From: Staphylothermus hellenicus DSM 12710
Lineage (GTDB): Archaea; Thermoproteota; Thermoprotei_A; Sulfolobales; Desulfurococcaceae
Reading direction: 5' to 3'
NCBI RefSeq assembly: GCF_000092465.1
Contig: NC_014205.1
Coordinates: 660,001 to 692,000, forward strand
Length of the DNA stretch: 32,000 nucleotides
Under the pieces are notes generated by a model, which was not told the origin of the DNA, ran no database searches, and worked only from the letters and a program-made list of their open reading frames with translations. Shown here piece by piece: positions 3,517-23,455 of this stretch; within the stretch, counting starts at the first letter, position 1, and each line of letters starts with the position of its first letter. The translations under genes and the position numbers were made by a program.

Positions 3517-4928
3517 CGAGGCCTATAGAAATTTCCAAGATAATTGAACACCCCGAGTATATGGAGCCAATAGAATATAGGGGAAAAATAGAGATTAGAG
3601 GAAAAATTACTCGAGACCTTGTCGAAGAGATTTCTAGGCAGAAAAAAGAACCGGATTGGATGCGTAGGCTTAGGCTTAGAGCTTTAGAATACTTTGAAAA
3701 ATTACCTTTACCTAAATGGCTCTATGGAATTGAATCAATAGATTTGGAAGAGATAACTACGTATTATGTTAAACCATTGGAGCAGCCGGCTAGCAATTGG
3801 GAAGACCTACCAGCAGAGATCAGAGAGATATATCTCAGACTTGGACTACCAGATGCTTATGCTAAATACTTGGCTGGATTAACTACTGTTCTCGATAGTG
3901 AAACAGCATATTCTGCTATGAAGGATTATTTGAAAAAGATTGGTGTGATCATGATCCCCATGGAACAAGCAATCAGAAAATACCCTGATCTAGTTAAGAA
4001 GTATTTTGGAAAAATAGTTGGCCCAATAGAGCACAAGTTCGCAGCACTACATTATGCATTATGGAGCGGAGGAGTATTCGTATATGTGCCTAAGAATGTT
4101 AAAGTACCCTACCCCGTCGAAGCATTCTTCTTCGTCGGCAAAGAGCTTGAGGGACAGTTTGAACACTCACTAATAGTCGCGGATGAAGGCTCTGAACTCA
4201 CATTTATAGAAGGATGCAGCGCTCCACGCTTCAAAAAGTTTAGCTTCCATGATGGAGCAGTAGAGCTATATGCACATAGGAAAGCTAAGATATCGTTTAT
4301 AACTGTTCAAAACTGGAGCAGGAACATAATAAACTTTAACAATAAGAGAGCTATAGCTGAAGAAGACTCATATGTAGAATGGTTGGAGGGAAGTATTGGA
4401 AGTAAATACACAGTCACATATCCATCAACAATTCTACGAGGTAAAGGAGCAAGGACATCAAGTCTAGTTGTAGGAATAGCTAATGGCCCATACATTAAGG
4501 ATACCGGATCCAAGGCAATACATGCTGCACCAAATACCAAGAGCAAAATAATATCTAAAAGTATCAGTAGTGAAGGAGGAGTAAACATCTATAGAGGACT
4601 AGTCCACATATTTAAAGGAGCAAAGAATTCGACAAGCTATGTACAATGTGATAGCCTAATACTGGATGAGAAAAGCAAAGCATACACCTATCCAATAATA
4701 CATGTTGAAGAAAAAGATTCTGAAACAGGACACGAAGCAACAACTGGCAGGATAAACGATGATCAAATATTCTACTTACAATCTAGAGGGCTAAGCGAGG
4801 GACAAGCTAAGAGTATGATTGTGCTCGGATATATTAAGGATGTTCTCAAAGGCCTACCGATGGAGTATGTAGCAATGCTGAACCGTGTTATACAATTAGA
4901 ATTTGAAAGAATAGGAGGAGTTGGTTGA
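3513..4928 (+). CDS. sufB: Fe-S cluster assembly scaffold SufB
   Basis: 471 aa. Core reads HSLIVADEGSELTFIEGCSAP; C-terminal part reads HEATTGRINDDQIFYLQSRGLSEGQAKSMIVLGYI, as in SufB. Translationally coupled to sufC and to the following gene. Confidence 0.93.
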   Translation: MTRPIEISKIIEHPEYMEPIEYRGKIEIRGKITRDLVEEISRQKKEPDWMRRLRLRALEYFEKLPLPKWLYGIESIDLEEITTYYVKPLEQPASNWEDLPAEIREIYLRLGLPDAYAKYLAGLTTVLDSETAYSAMKDYLKKIGVIMIPMEQAIRKYPDLVKKYFGKIVGPIEHKFAALHYALWSGGVFVYVPKNVKVPYPVEAFFFVGKELEGQFEHSLIVADEGSELTFIEGCSAPRFKKFSFHDGAVELYAHRKAKISFITVQNWSRNIINFNNKRAIAEEDSYVEWLEGSIGSKYTVTYPSTILRGKGARTSSLVVGIANGPYIKDTGSKAIHAAPNTKSKIISKSISSEGGVNIYRGLVHIFKGAKNSTSYVQCDSLILDEKSKAYTYPIIHVEEKDSETGHEATTGRINDDQIFYLQSRGLSEGQAKSMIVLGYIKDVLKGLPMEYVAMLNRVIQLEFERIGGVG

Positions 4929-14776: not shown

Positions 14777-16402
14777 TTGCCACGTCACTGGATCGATGAA
14801 CTAGCTGATAATCTCTATGAGAAGCTTTTGGAGAGGAGGAAAGAAGTCTATGTATTTAATGGTGGATTAAGTGTTTCAGGCCTCCAACATGTTGGACGAT
14901 TAAGGGGCGAAATAATCATTCCAGAAGTCATACGTAGAATATTGTCAAAGAAAGGACTGAAAATTAAACAATACATAACGCTCTATACACAAGATGCTTG
15001 GAAAGGTAAGAAAGCACAATTAAACGCTTTTCCGAACCCTAAGGAGGCAGAGAAATATAAGGGTTGGCCACTGATCAATGTCCCGGACCCAATGGGTTGC
15101 CATAAAAACTGGGTTGAACATTACTGGGAAGACTTCGGCCCTTACCTTAAAGAATTCACGGATGGAGAAATAGAAGTAGTTACAACTACTGATCTATATC
15201 GTGGAAAACTCTTGGAGTTCACATTGAAAACACTCGAGATCAGAGAAAAAGTTAGGAAAACAATAAACAAGTATCGTGGCAGAAAACCTTACCCCGAGAA
15301 CTGGATACCTTTCGAACCAATATGCAGTAAATGTGGAAGAATAGACTCTACCGAAGCATTAGAGATTATTGATCATGATAAGGTTAAGTATAGATGTAAA
15401 AACTGCGGATACATGGGAGTATCTGATCTAAGCAATGGAAAACTTAACTGGAGAATAGAATGGGTAGGAGTATGGTGGAGTCTGGGAGTAGATTTCGAGC
15501 CCTACGGTAAAGACCACGCTACACCGGGCGGTAGCCGTGATAGCTGTGCAGACCTTGCAGTCAATGTTTATGGAATAAAACCACCCGAGGGAATACCTTA
15601 TGAATGGGTTGCTATGCGCACAAAAGATAAAAAAGTATTAGATATGACAAGTAGTGGATTCATAGGATTTACCCCGAAGGAATGGTTAGAAGTGGCACAC
15701 CCACATATTTATAGATTCATAGTTCTCAGAACATCTCCAATGAAAAAAATCGTTCTAAGCCTATACGAAATACCTCAGTATTATAGCCAATACTATAAAG
15801 CTGAGAGAATCTATTATGGATTAGAGAAGGCTAAGAATGAAGAAGAGGAAGTTTTACTGAAAAGAAGCTATGAATTAAGCTATCCCAGAGGAGAACCTCC
15901 AGAAACTCCTCCAGAACAAGTATCCTATACTCATCTAGCAATACTATCCCAAATATTACCGTCCCAACTATGGAGAACTGAGGGGATAAAAAGATTAATA
16001 AACACAAAGATCATCCCAGAGAATCCATCCAAATATGGATTACAGAGAATACTTGAGACGCTTGAAAAAGCCCATGTATGGACAGAAAAATATGCTCCAG
16101 AAAACATGAAGTTCAAACTACTACCAGAACCAAAACCTGAAATAATAAAGACCATACCAGAGAAGCACAGAATCATTCTTAGAAAAATGAAAAAGCTCCT
16201 AGAGCAAATAGAGGAATGGAACGATGAAAACATAAAAAACGCAATGATCGCTGCAACCAAAGATCTAACAATGAATGAGAGAAAAAGGCTATATGAAGAC
16301 TTCTACAAGTTAATCATAGGGAAACCAAGCGGGCCAAGAGCAGCACCACTACTAGCTCTTCTAGGCAAGGAAAACAGCTTAAAATATTTCGAATACATCT
16401 GA
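14777..16402 (+). CDS. lysK: class I lysyl-tRNA synthetase homologue with divergent signature motifs
   Basis: Collinear, from my recollection of archaeal class I LysRS, with HWxD...SGxxHVG(N)xR, VPDPxGCH, NWxP, WxxLGVDFEPxGKDH, ERIYxG, YELS, KYAPE and a GPRxAxxLAxL tail. A CxxC...CxxC Zn ribbon is present (CSKCG...CKNCG). TTG start with GGTGAAG upstream. Confidence 0.8.
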   Translation: MPRHWIDELADNLYEKLLERRKEVYVFNGGLSVSGLQHVGRLRGEIIIPEVIRRILSKKGLKIKQYITLYTQDAWKGKKAQLNAFPNPKEAEKYKGWPLINVPDPMGCHKNWVEHYWEDFGPYLKEFTDGEIEVVTTTDLYRGKLLEFTLKTLEIREKVRKTINKYRGRKPYPENWIPFEPICSKCGRIDSTEALEIIDHDKVKYRCKNCGYMGVSDLSNGKLNWRIEWVGVWWSLGVDFEPYGKDHATPGGSRDSCADLAVNVYGIKPPEGIPYEWVAMRTKDKKVLDMTSSGFIGFTPKEWLEVAHPHIYRFIVLRTSPMKKIVLSLYEIPQYYSQYYKAERIYYGLEKAKNEEEEVLLKRSYELSYPRGEPPETPPEQVSYTHLAILSQILPSQLWRTEGIKRLINTKIIPENPSKYGLQRILETLEKAHVWTEKYAPENMKFKLLPEPKPEIIKTIPEKHRIILRKMKKLLEQIEEWNDENIKNAMIAATKDLTMNERKRLYEDFYKLIIGKPSGPRAAPLLALLGKENSLKYFEYI

Positions 16403-21918: not shown

Positions 21919-22227
21919 ATGGTAGATGAATATATTAGGTCTCTTCAAACACCTGATCTTCTACCTAGTAATTGGTACAATATCTTGCCTGATCTACCAG
22001 AGCCCATTCCTCCAATGAAGCTTGGAACAGGTGAAGTAGTAAGGCCTGAAATGTTAGAAAAATTATTTACTCGTACAGCTGTTAAGCAAGAGTTTAGCAT
22101 GGAGAGATACATAAGTATACCCAGCGATCTCCGAGAAACATATCTAGAAATAGGCAGGCCAACACCACTGCCCAGAGCAAAGCGTTTAGAAGAATACTTG
22201 AATACTCCTGCTAAAATCTATTATTAA
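21919..22227 (+). CDS. trpB2: TrpB2 (tryptophan synthase beta-like) N-terminal segment, as translated up to the TAA
   Basis: MVDEYIRSLQTPDLLPSNWYNILPDLPEPIPPMK...YLEIGRPTPLPRAKRLEEYLNTPAKIYY*. Homology continues past the stop as YEGVT (22228-22242). Confidence 0.85.
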   Translation: MVDEYIRSLQTPDLLPSNWYNILPDLPEPIPPMKLGTGEVVRPEMLEKLFTRTAVKQEFSMERYISIPSDLRETYLEIGRPTPLPRAKRLEEYLNTPAKIYY

Positions 22228-22246
22228 TACGAGGGAGTAACCGTTT

Positions 22247-22296
22247 GTCCCTACCGTGTCATTCTGTATATTTTTGTTTGTGTCCACGGTAGGGAC
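22247..22296. repeat. perfect 12-bp inverted repeat (hairpin with a 26-nt AT-rich loop)
   Basis: GTCCCTACCGTG (22247-22258) pairs with CACGGTAGGGAC (22285-22296). Confidence 0.95.
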
Positions 22297-22305
22297 TTCC
22301 ACCTC

Positions 22306-22335
22306 CCCCATAGTCTTCGAGAAAAGACTATGGGG
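22306..22335. repeat. perfect 12-bp inverted repeat (hairpin with a 6-nt loop)
   Basis: CCCCATAGTCTT (22306-22317), loop cgagaa, then AAGACTATGGGG (22324-22335). Confidence 0.95.
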
Positions 22336-22477
22336 TCATGGGCGGCTGTCGAGGCCAACGGCACGGGCCTCCCATCTACAGCAAGCCCCATGGGTCTCGG
22401 AGCATAGCTCCCATCAACCCACAGGGACATAGATCAATACAAGAAAACATAATCTGAAATATTTAAAGCTTACTACC

Positions 22478-23455
22478 CCTACTGGTAGCCATAAAATCAA
22501 TACTGCACTAGCCCAAGCATATTATGCTTTTAGAGAAGGGATCACTAGATTAACCACTGGGACCGGTGCGGGGCAATGGGGCTCAGCACTGAGTCTTGCA
22601 GGATCAATGTTTGGATTAAAAATAACTGTATACATGGTTAGAATAAGCTATTTACAGAAACCATACCGTAAAACCGTTATGGAGCTATATGGTGCAGAAA
22701 TATATCCTAGCCCCAGTGAAAAAACCGAGATAGGTAGAAAACTACTCTTAGAAAACCCTGATCATCCTGGAAGCTTAGGTATAGCAATAAGCGAAGCAAT
22801 ATGGGATGCAATGAATAGTGTAAACACAAAGTACTCCCTAGGATCAGTCCTGAACCATGTCCTACTACACCAGACAATAATTGGGTTGGAAGCAAAGAAG
22901 CAACTTGAAGAAATAGGTGTTTACCCCGATATGGTTATAGGATGCGTTGGTGGAGGAAGCAATTTTGCAGGAATAACATATCCGTTCATAAGGGATAGAT
23001 TGAAAAACTCCAGCAATACCAAGTTCGTAGCTGTAGAGCCAGAAGCTGCTCCGTCAATGACGAGGGGAGAATATCGTTACGACTATGGAGACTCGGCAGG
23101 CTTAACTCCTCTAATCAAAATGTATACTCTCGGATACAAATATATACCGCCACCCATACATGCTGGAGGGCTAAGATACCATGGATTAGCACCGTCGCTA
23201 AGCATATTGGTGAAGCATGGAATAGTCGAACCTAGAGCATATCCGCAGAAACAAGTATTTGAAGCAGGCAGAGTATTTGCTAGAATAGAAGGAATAATCC
23301 CCGCACCCGAATCAGCACATGCAGTAAAAGCCGTTATTGATGAAGCAATAAAAGCCCGTAGAGAAAACAAGGAAAAAATAATATTGTTCAATCTAAGCGG
23401 GCATGGATTGCTAGATTTGAAAGGATACCGTGATTTCTTAGACGGAAAAATATGA
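22478..23455 (+). CDS. trpB2: TrpB2 C-terminal segment (carries the PLP-lysine motif); first ATG only at 22607
   Basis: [65 protein letters not shown]...[11 protein letters not shown]...GGLRYHG...PAPESAHA...[11 protein letters not shown]. The frame is open from 22433, but no start codon precedes the catalytic-Lys motif. Confidence 0.85.

Follow-up and report, generated by a model that had tools for sequence, protein, structure and literature searches.

Elements of the IS607 family have neither inverted repeats nor target duplications, and they insert at an invariant GG target, for which (G)GG is preferred; their termini also carry GG, consistent with a 2-bp exchange performed by a serine recombinase (PMC6188088). 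IS607-type elements pass through a circular intermediate and make use of a TGGG-type motif, and in a clostridial element of this type about 40 bp of the left end and 60 bp of the right end are sufficient for excision (10.1101/2023.11.20.567912). The omega-RNA architecture, in which a conserved fold overlaps the 3′ end of tnpB and stops at the right end of the transposon, with unrelated flank beyond, is known for bacterial elements and for a Sulfolobus element (PMC10055086; 10.1101/2023.03.06.531077). Elements devoid of proteins, named PATEs, "often encode omega-RNAs", which are used in trans (PMC10055086). Among archaeal miniatures, SMN1 and SMN2 of Sulfolobus, named as miniature non-inverted-repeat transposable elements, are 251-320 bp long, possess no terminal inverted repeats (TIRs) and insert into genes, with SMN2 interrupting plrA.

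The locus analyzed here lies within a 32-kb stretch of DNA (hereafter the window) from a Desulfurococcales-like host with 36% G+C. It holds a GC-rich island that is very probably a non-autonomous miniature derivative of an IS607-family element, located on the minus strand inside a gene of the TrpB2 type and retaining the omega-RNA scaffold. Mobile elements of this kind, SMN- or PATE-like, are already known from archaea; the island adds an ordinary one to them, and current understanding is not changed by these results. With the IS607 family (IS607, IS1535, ISC1926) it has in common the homologous ends, GG at target and termini, the absence of TIRs and target-site duplications (TSDs), and a tnpB 3′ end overlapping a structured RNA, while differing from it in the absence of tnpA and of all but the last ~57 codons of tnpB. 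Having lost tnpA and most of tnpB, the element can neither move nor make TnpB alone.

Compared to SMN1 and SMN2, the element belongs to a similar size class (235 bp), likewise lacks TIRs and is likewise found within a gene. The right end ...GTAGGGACAAACGG and the set of helices are common to all of them, and so is a small open reading frame (ORF) for the TnpB C-terminus, extending 21 codons upstream and 37-39 codons downstream of the conserved 23-nt block described below. On the other hand, overall identity is only about 50% (82% over 45 nt, the stretch of the insert that matched the annotated MITE-SMN2 among phage and archaeal-virus records), and the left end is shorter, beginning with GG-TAGTAAGC in place of the GG-GCTGAATCC of SMN1 and SMN2, whose host is Sulfolobus. 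Judged by these sequence comparisons, the element probably represents a subfamily related to SMN1/SMN2 and not the same element.

The interrupted trpB2 gene

The island is flanked by two ORFs of 102 aa and 282 aa, which are the halves of one trpB2 gene. The parts of the host gene are as follows:

21919 to 22242, plus strand: 5′ part of the host gene, comprising codons 1-108 up to ...GTA ACC; the product is a tryptophan synthase beta of the TrpB2 type / TrpB-like PLP enzyme
22225 to 22227, plus strand: in-frame TAA, 15 nt ahead of the insertion, at the place where the IYYKYEG motif has its conserved Lys codon AAA
22478 to 23455, plus strand: remaining 3′ part of trpB2, now in the +1 frame, with CCT ACT GGT AGC CAT AAA (PTGSHK, the PLP-lysine motif) as its first codons

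The upstream half is read in frame 1, from the ATG at 21919 to ...NTPAKIYY*YEGVT, and the downstream half in frame 2, up to the stop at 23455. Joining the halves at 22242|22478 gives a protein that can be aligned, with no gap, to the structure of S. solfataricus TrpB2 (6hul_B, E 3e-164) and to orthologues of 433 aa, the best of which (P0001) has 91% amino acid identity. In the DNA of this closest orthologue (L003), the corresponding region reads ...TAT TAT AAA TAT GAA GGA GTA ACC|CCT ACT GGT AGC..., and in comparison with it the window carries 235 extra nt exactly at ACC|CCT, with a 3-nt ambiguity in the placement of ACC. After deletion of the 235 nt the two genes are colinear, with 1302 nt each and 88.6% nucleotide identity. 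The limits of the insert are in this way set at 22241/43 to 22475/77, with the AT-rich segment 22431-22475 included. An earlier, preliminary description of the island had placed its end at 22440, which the uninterrupted orthologue moves to ~22475-22477. The same description was silent on the protein-coding gene split by the island.

Codon differences to the orthologue comprise 98 synonymous and 39 nonsynonymous changes together with one internal stop, indicating that trpB2 was under purifying selection until recently. The region beside the insertion has no excess of substitutions, as 3 were found in 18 nt and 36% of the 18-nt windows of the gene have at least 3. The insertion itself shifts the reading frame six codons ahead of the PLP-binding lysine. 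Owing to this frameshift and the in-frame TAA, the host trpB2 is probably a recent pseudogene. The truncated ORF of 102 aa is identical in two Logan assemblies. For annotation, the ORFs of 102 aa and 282 aa are of value as the remains of a single, recently broken trpB2.

Parts of the element and its insertion site

The core of the island, 22285-22430, has a G+C content of 60.3% (88/146), compared to 35.7% for the whole window, and the 200-nt windows adjoining the island are at 29-42%. The recount agrees with the GC-rich core of 60% (88/146) in AT-rich surroundings given in the preliminary description. One other stretch with similar G+C is present in the 32 kb, at ~15441-15590, within a long protein-coding ORF. 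The following parts of the element and its junctions can be recognized:

22243 to 22475, minus strand: element body, 233 bp (235 bp with one GG core)
22241 to 22242, minus strand: GG core of the right-end junction (CC on the plus strand); all 27 of 27 aligned members end in ...GGGACAAACGG and then diverge
22476 to 22477, minus strand: GG core of the left-end junction; before insertion, the minus strand read CCAGTAGG-GG-TTACTCC
22431 to 22475, minus strand: AT-rich left end of 45 nt, TAGTAAGCTTTAAATATTTCAGATTATGTTTTCTTGTATTGATCT, alignable with its counterparts in the full-length elements L063 and L056
22460 to 22467, minus strand: TATA-box-like motif TTTAAATA, presumed tnpA promoter; position and sequence conserved in L063 and L056
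22251 to 22430, minus strand: ORF of 59 aa, remnant of the TnpB C-terminus; its ATG is followed in frame by the ~57 terminal codons of tnpB
22241 to 22426, minus strand: tnpB 3′ end and right end, the putative omega-RNA scaffold region, with six conserved helices
22221 to 22240, minus strand: predicted omega-RNA guide TTACTCCCTCGTATTAATAA, the flank directly 3′ of the right end, antisense to trpB2

A sensitive blastn search against annotated plasmids aligned the first 175 nt of the insert with pGE2 of Pyrococcus abyssi (72%, E 7e-20). On the plasmid, the matched segment comprises the final ~170 nt of a gene with the annotation TnpB and 9 nt past its stop codon, on the opposite strand. At the protein level, the 59-aa ORF aligns with residues 370-423 of the pGE2 TnpB (50% identity, E 2e-14, BLASTP), and residues 377-432 of the L056 TnpB find the same place in the window by tblastn (57%, E 9e-15). 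Neither the 58-aa nor the 59-aa ORF encoded by the insert had an identical database entry, and a protein search with the 59-aa TnpB remnant gave no database candidate. The terminus ...GGTAGGGAsAAACGG is common to the window element, pGE2 and SMN2.

At the other side of the element, the left end aligns with the segments located just upstream of the tnpA start in L063 and L056, with a mean column identity of 77%. The TATA-like box, TTTAAATA also in L063 and TTTAAGTA in L056, lies ~45 nt upstream of the tnpA ATG, and the motif presumably acts as a promoter. Since both ends are homologous to those of full-length IS607-type elements, the insert is an IS607-type element with an internal deletion, which spared 45 nt at the left end and, at the other side, the final ~190 nt with the 3′ end of tnpB and the right end. 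By comparison with the full-length relatives, the deletion removed everything from the tnpA start to approximately codon 375 of tnpB. Neither tnpA nor a full tnpB was found in the element or elsewhere in the 32-kb window. Because tnpA is absent from both, the insert is filed as a non-autonomous derivative and not as an IS. A pattern search and sensitive blastn found no further copy of the insert within the window.

On the minus strand, the occupied site reads ...AGTAGG-GG-[TAGTAAGC...ACAAAC-GG]-TTACTCC. The target is a GG within GGGG, GG is present at both junctions and no duplication extends beyond it. A repeat search of 22150-22550 found no inverted repeats joining the termini, only a weak internal pair of 16 nt at 75%. 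As strict MITEs are defined by TIRs and a target-site duplication, the element is of the non-inverted-repeat kind. SMN-type copies are arranged in the same way, flank-GG-[GCTGAATCC...ACAAAC-GG]-flank, with unrelated flanks, and the left ends of L063 and L056 are likewise preceded by a run of G. The GG target and junctions and the lack of TIRs and TSDs match the published behavior of IS607 elements. In addition, the retained ends, 45 bp on the left and ~190 bp on the right, exceed the 40 bp and 60 bp sufficient in the clostridial IS607-type element.

Family and full-length relatives

The family was collected through a 23-nt block, GAGSCCCGTGCCGTTGGSCTCGA, conserved in the window element, pGE2 and SMN2, by looking for exact matches in species-representative genomes. 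There were 100 matches, nearly all of them crenarchaeal. Those listed belong to Desulfurococcales, Sulfolobales, Acidilobales, Thermoproteales and other Thermoproteota, over which this IS607-type lineage is spread. The sole non-archaeal match among those listed, in an alphaproteobacterial MAG (L044), has 29% identity to the window copy outside the 23-mer; sharing so little beyond the block, it fits the approximately one chance match that we estimate from the length of the 23-mer. Genomes can hold many copies, at least 20 in the case of Metallosphaera yellowstonensis MK1. An ORF of 369-416 codons upstream of the block, corresponding to a full-length tnpB, is present in 16 copies, while in about three quarters of them the upstream ORF is shorter than 80 codons, as in miniature or decayed elements. 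The layout seen in the window, with 21 codons upstream and 39 downstream of the block, recurs in many copies from Metallosphaera and Stygiolobus. Most of the detected copies are miniatures, in which the omega-RNA fold has been preserved together with a left end that carries the promoter.

The closest relatives of the window element are the 3′ ends of the full-length elements L046, L056, L063 and L016, which reside in MAGs of Acidilobaceae and Thermoprotei and are ~76% identical over ~195 nt, in alignments spanning 22426 to 22241-22239. At just ~76% identity, these relatives are too distant to be taken as the parent element. In the closest full-length relatives and in pGE2, a tnpA for an HTH domain plus a serine recombinase overlaps the start of tnpB. 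This holds for L056, L063, L016, L019, L033 and pGE2, that is, for every close full-length relative with an identifiable transposase. The L056 tnpA product matches the NCBIfam model NF033518, "IS607 family transposase", with 243 bits (cut-off 110). Its tnpB matches TIGR01766 and the Pfam family Cas12f1-like_TNB, and the TnpB score against NF040570, 98.6 bits, is below the cut-off of 100.

These results bear on the transposase that moved the element. PATE-like derivatives of IS200/IS605, such as those of Geobacillus stearothermophilus, likewise consist of two ends and a guide-RNA scaffold and need TnpB from elsewhere (PMC10055086). They differ in being moved as single-stranded DNA by a Y1 transposase, with TAM/TEM cleavage motifs, while the window element is archaeal and belongs to the serine-recombinase (IS607) branch. 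If the window element were nevertheless a derivative of the IS200/IS605 kind, a Y1 tyrosine TnpA would have recognized its subterminal hairpins. The matched gene of pGE2 is indeed annotated as "IS200/IS605 family accessory protein TnpB-related", an IS200 transposase has been suggested as the mobilizer of SMN2 (PMC3839810), and the element, without TIRs or a TSD, has a 12-bp hairpin 5 nt from one of its ends. However, the left end has no hairpin, so that subterminal hairpins are not present at both ends, an exchange by a serine recombinase fits the GG cores, which are found at both ends as well as at the target, and the identifiable transposases of close full-length relatives are serine recombinases, that of L056 being typed as IS607, and not Y1 enzymes. 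Mobilization of the Y1 type is accordingly very unlikely, and assignment to the IS607 branch is preferred.

Regarding the source organism itself, an exact 20-mer from the core, TAGCTCCCATCAACCCACAG, had no match in species-representative genomes or JGI metagenomes, which places the source genome outside those two collections. Two Logan assemblies (k=31) carry the locus, with contigs that end at 22270 and resume at 22400. The locus is contained in the reads of SRR3925462 and SRR3925463. In a de Bruijn graph such breaks are to be expected of a repeat that extends over 22241-22429. Measured from the right end (22241) and from the deletion junction (22429), the breaks are displaced inwards by ~29-30 nt, and as the limits of the repeat coincide with these two points, a further copy in the source organism is suggested, either a full element or one with a different deletion. 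The searches with the 20-mer, the ORFs and the protein remnant recovered no such copy.

RNA structure, intron-like motif and proposed origin

The island folds more stably than expected on both strands: the plus strand at -92.7 kcal/mol (z -4.4) and the minus strand, which is the more stable one, at -113.7 kcal/mol (z -5.5), each exceeding 200 of 200 dinucleotide shuffles. An alignment of 27 family members in the tnpB sense yielded a consensus of 46 base pairs in six helices. The helices, each defined by the consensus fold and covariation, are located as follows:

22416-25/22387-96, minus strand: helix H1
22407-11/22399-403, minus strand: helix H2
22366-71/22351-56, minus strand: helix H3
22337-45/22299-306, minus strand: helix H4
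22327-33/22308-14, minus strand: helix H5
22286-96/22247-57, minus strand: helix H6

Compensatory double changes were found in 24 of the 46 pairs across the 27 members, which answers the covariation check with homologues that the preliminary description had proposed. Alignment cells are paired in 96% of cases, compared to 84% in shuffles and 33-48% when the partners are slid by 1-3 columns. Likewise, the covariation score is 0.359, compared to 0.145 in shuffles (none of 500 reach it) and 0.045-0.093 after sliding. G-U pairs exceed A-C combinations in the 27-member alignment by 95 to 24, and this excess indicates an RNA read on the tnpB-sense strand, which is the minus strand of the window. The functional strand of the island is accordingly the minus strand.

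All four stems listed in the preliminary description exist and are equal to H6, H5, H3 and H2: the perfect 12-bp stems are at 22247-58/22285-96 and 22306-17/22324-35, the 6-bp stem at 22351-56/22366-71 coincides with the conserved family helix H3, and the 5-bp stem at 22399-403/22407-11 with H2. Their interpretation has changed. The perfect stems had been taken as a sign of youth, yet in the family as a whole these helices are conserved and show compensatory changes, and the repeated CCCAT and ATGGG strings, thought to allow pseudoknots, are the arms of the conserved helices H1 and H4 on the minus strand. As for the choice between a structured RNA and a miniature mobile element, both turned out to be true together, the island being a mobile element with a conserved RNA-encoding core.

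Searches for known RNAs gave no assignment. At gathering thresholds, Rfam 15, with its models for tRNA, SRP, RNase P, sRNAs, group I/II introns and ribozymes, had no match in the whole window, and at E<=10 the region 22100-22600 gave just a chance match to mir-308 (15 bits, E 2.9). ARAGORN reported neither tRNA nor tmRNA in the window. The type of the element had not been recognized in the preliminary description, where no known RNA family was matched, and the Rfam 15 scan was likewise without a matching family. A cmscan of 22200-22500 had also been proposed there, with a clear Rfam hit named as the contrary outcome; such a hit is absent, no Rfam family being found.

It could be argued that the island does not stem from a mobile element at all, and that a small RNA gene of a new class resides here between two gene fragments. 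A GC-rich composition, strong structure, a TATA-like box of its own and the lack of an Rfam match would all be in line with this. Against it, the island splits one gene at a single phosphodiester bond in comparison with the orthologue, is homologous to the 3′ ends of tnpB and belongs to a multi-copy family with unrelated flanks, leaving a resident gene with an almost negligible probability. A mobile element is preferred. For annotation, the case shows that an accumulation of G+C and hairpins in the AT-rich genome of a hyperthermophile is not necessarily due to a housekeeping RNA; at this locus it marks the guide-RNA scaffold of a decayed TnpB transposon.

Several properties of the fold point to the omega-RNA architecture. 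The structure (22426-22247) overlaps the TnpB remnant (22430-22251) on the minus strand, and the conserved sequence stops at the right end, at 22241, followed by an unrelated flank. Divergence begins directly after ...AAACGG in 27 of 27 aligned copies and in 21 SMN-type copies. By analogy with described elements, the conserved fold is regarded as the signature of a TnpB omega-RNA scaffold, and the flank TTACTCCCTCGTATTAATAA would be its guide.

A different question is whether the insert could leave the transcript of its host gene as an archaeal intron of the bulge-helix-bulge (BHB) type. A motif resembling a BHB is present at the junctions:

22233 to 22480, plus strand: BHB-like motif, with the outer helix 22233-35/22478-80, central helix 22236-39/22471-74, bulges 22240-42 and 22475-77, and inner helix 22243-46/22466-69

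The outer helix pairs GGG with CCU (3 bp), the central helix AGUA with UACU (4 bp) and the inner helix GUUU with AAGC (4 bp), and the two 3-nt bulges are AC|C. In the trpB2 pre-mRNA, the endonuclease would cut at 22241|22242 and 22476|22477, and the ligase would restore ...GUA ACC CCU ACU.... These cuts coincide exactly with the junction in the orthologue. Among 30,900 equally spaced position pairs of the window, 31 (0.1%) score as well, with 4 registers possible. Furthermore, mRNA introns of this type are known from cbf5 in Crenarchaeota (PMC2738675), where a BHB motif is also located at the exact insert junctions in a protein-coding gene. The cbf5 intron, however, occupies the same conserved site in different orders, and its ORF is intact after splicing, whereas the insert in the window is a lineage-specific transposon remnant and a stop remains, the spliced trpB2 mRNA keeping an in-frame UAA at codon 103. 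Moreover, the insert is absent from all close trpB2 orthologues, its conserved RNA structure is on the strand opposite to the host sense, and the BHB helices appear short and A-U-rich for a hyperthermophile.

As a control, the other miniature insertions of the family were inspected on either strand, and the central and outer BHB helices are formed in 0 of 23. The excised and circularized archaeal intron considered in the preliminary description is therefore unsupported as a property of the family. Only the short inner helix is intrinsic to the ends of the element, with the rest contributed by the flank, and the BHB-like motif is probably a flank-dependent coincidence. On the strength of the homology results and of this control, the BHB intron reading was downgraded, and we consider it highly improbable. 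There is equally little chance that the motif is nevertheless cut in vivo. In a variant of the same reading, the transposon remnant would have become an accidental intron at this single site, where flanks and termini fold into a BHB and tRNA-splicing endonuclease and RNA ligase release a 235-nt circle, which is likewise very doubtful. If true, such an accidental intron would be the archaeal counterpart, dependent on protein enzymes, of the self-splicing bacterial IStrons. The latter combine IS605/IS607 elements with a group I intron and, as here, place a TnpB/omega-RNA transposon in a gene with its removal from the host transcript in question. The window element differs from them in having no group I ribozyme (no Rfam match) and in its antisense orientation to the host gene, and its sole splicing-like feature is the flank-dependent BHB motif, absent from other copies. 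An alternative splice junction at 22224|22457, which would remove the TAA, was rejected: all orthologues read IYYKYEGVTPTGSHK and no BHB was seen there by hand inspection.

The origin of the miniature element could be envisaged as follows. An IS607-family element, with a tnpA for the serine recombinase and a tnpB for the RNA-guided nuclease, underwent the internal deletion. An IS607 serine transposase acting in trans could then have moved the product, by way of a double-stranded circle recombining at the 2-bp GG core. The retained tnpA promoter may transcribe the scaffold and read out across the right end, giving an omega-RNA in which ~16-20 nt of adjoining trpB2 antisense sequence would serve as the guide. 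If a TnpB encoded at another locus of the genome took up this RNA, it could cleave the empty site left after excision, and we propose that such cutting would favor retention of the element. By analogy with the described systems, we propose that the promoter in the left end drives transcription, and that the omega-RNA is processed and loaded into TnpB. The high G+C content is explained by the folding required of this RNA in a hyperthermophile whose genome is AT-rich. The pattern observed in the family is in line with the published view that TnpB can receive guide RNAs in trans from elements without proteins, and its copies are a ready source of thermostable omega-RNA scaffolds for comparison.

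Element termini and the adjacent trpB2 sequence

At the ends of the 235-bp miniature IS607-type element, the junction regions on the two sides could be paired with each other, and further features were recognized in the flanking sequence:

22233-22246 with 22466-22480, plus strand: bulge-helix-bulge-like motif
22476-22483: G run preceding the left end (TAGGGG)
22225-22227: in-frame TAA in trpB2, where the uninterrupted orthologue has AAA

The cut sites of the bulge-helix-bulge-like motif fall at the same places as both GG cores of the transposon junctions, and none of the 23 other miniature insertions examined has such a motif. In 22 of these 23 control copies, among them L014, L021 and L048, the tips of the right and left ends, each taken as its complement (GUUU... 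for the right end), can pair in a 4-bp helix; this is a short complementarity intrinsic to the two termini. Four or five G precede the left end in the subfamily of the window element, as seen at three sites: that in the window and those of two full-length relatives, L063 (3249-3260) and L056 (2615-2626), both reading AGGGGG. From these three sites alone, there is a hint of a G-rich target or TAM preference extending past the GG core.

The in-frame TAA is located 16 nt from the right end of the element, within the predicted guide/target segment of the omega-RNA. TnpB enzymes have a cutting zone at 15-21 nt, and the stop codon is positioned inside it. This placement, in regard to both the segment and the cutting zone, may be a coincidence, because the substitution density around the TAA is not unusual, with at least three differences being found in 36% of 18-nt windows.

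Relatives and further copies

Logan k=31 contigs of this region (SRR3925462, SRR3925463; L001, L002, L005) break at 22270 and 22400, which is 29-30 nt inside the right end of the element and its deletion junction, therefore suggesting that another copy of 22241-22429 is present in the same sample. Such a copy was sought but not retrieved.

Approximately three quarters of the element copies located through the conserved 23-nt block (L008-L107) are miniature. Copies in Metallosphaera and Stygiolobus recurrently hold an ORF of 59-60 aa, in which an ATG is joined to the TnpB C-terminus, with 21 codons before the conserved block and 39 after it; the Sulfolobus element SMN2 has nearly the same layout (21/37 codons). 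The sole non-archaeal match to the block, for which about one match is expected by chance, is in an alphaproteobacterial MAG (L044, 4454-4476), where identity outside the block is 29% and little or nothing is shared.

In Pyrococcus abyssi pGE2 (L006), an apparently intact IS607-type serine-recombinase ORF (…VIYARVSSSDQ…) occupies minus-strand positions 4296-4871 of the locus, with the annotated tnpB directly downstream. This recombinase ORF is omitted from the pGE2 gene table, a list known to have gaps.

The other GC-rich stretch

The only further stretch of the window exceeding 52% G+C, 15441-15590 (maximum 57%), is enclosed by one ORF:

14777-16402, plus strand: 541-aa ORF

In L001 its counterpart is a gene for which Pfam gives a match to class-I lysyl-tRNA synthetase, and the stretch is ordinary coding sequence.
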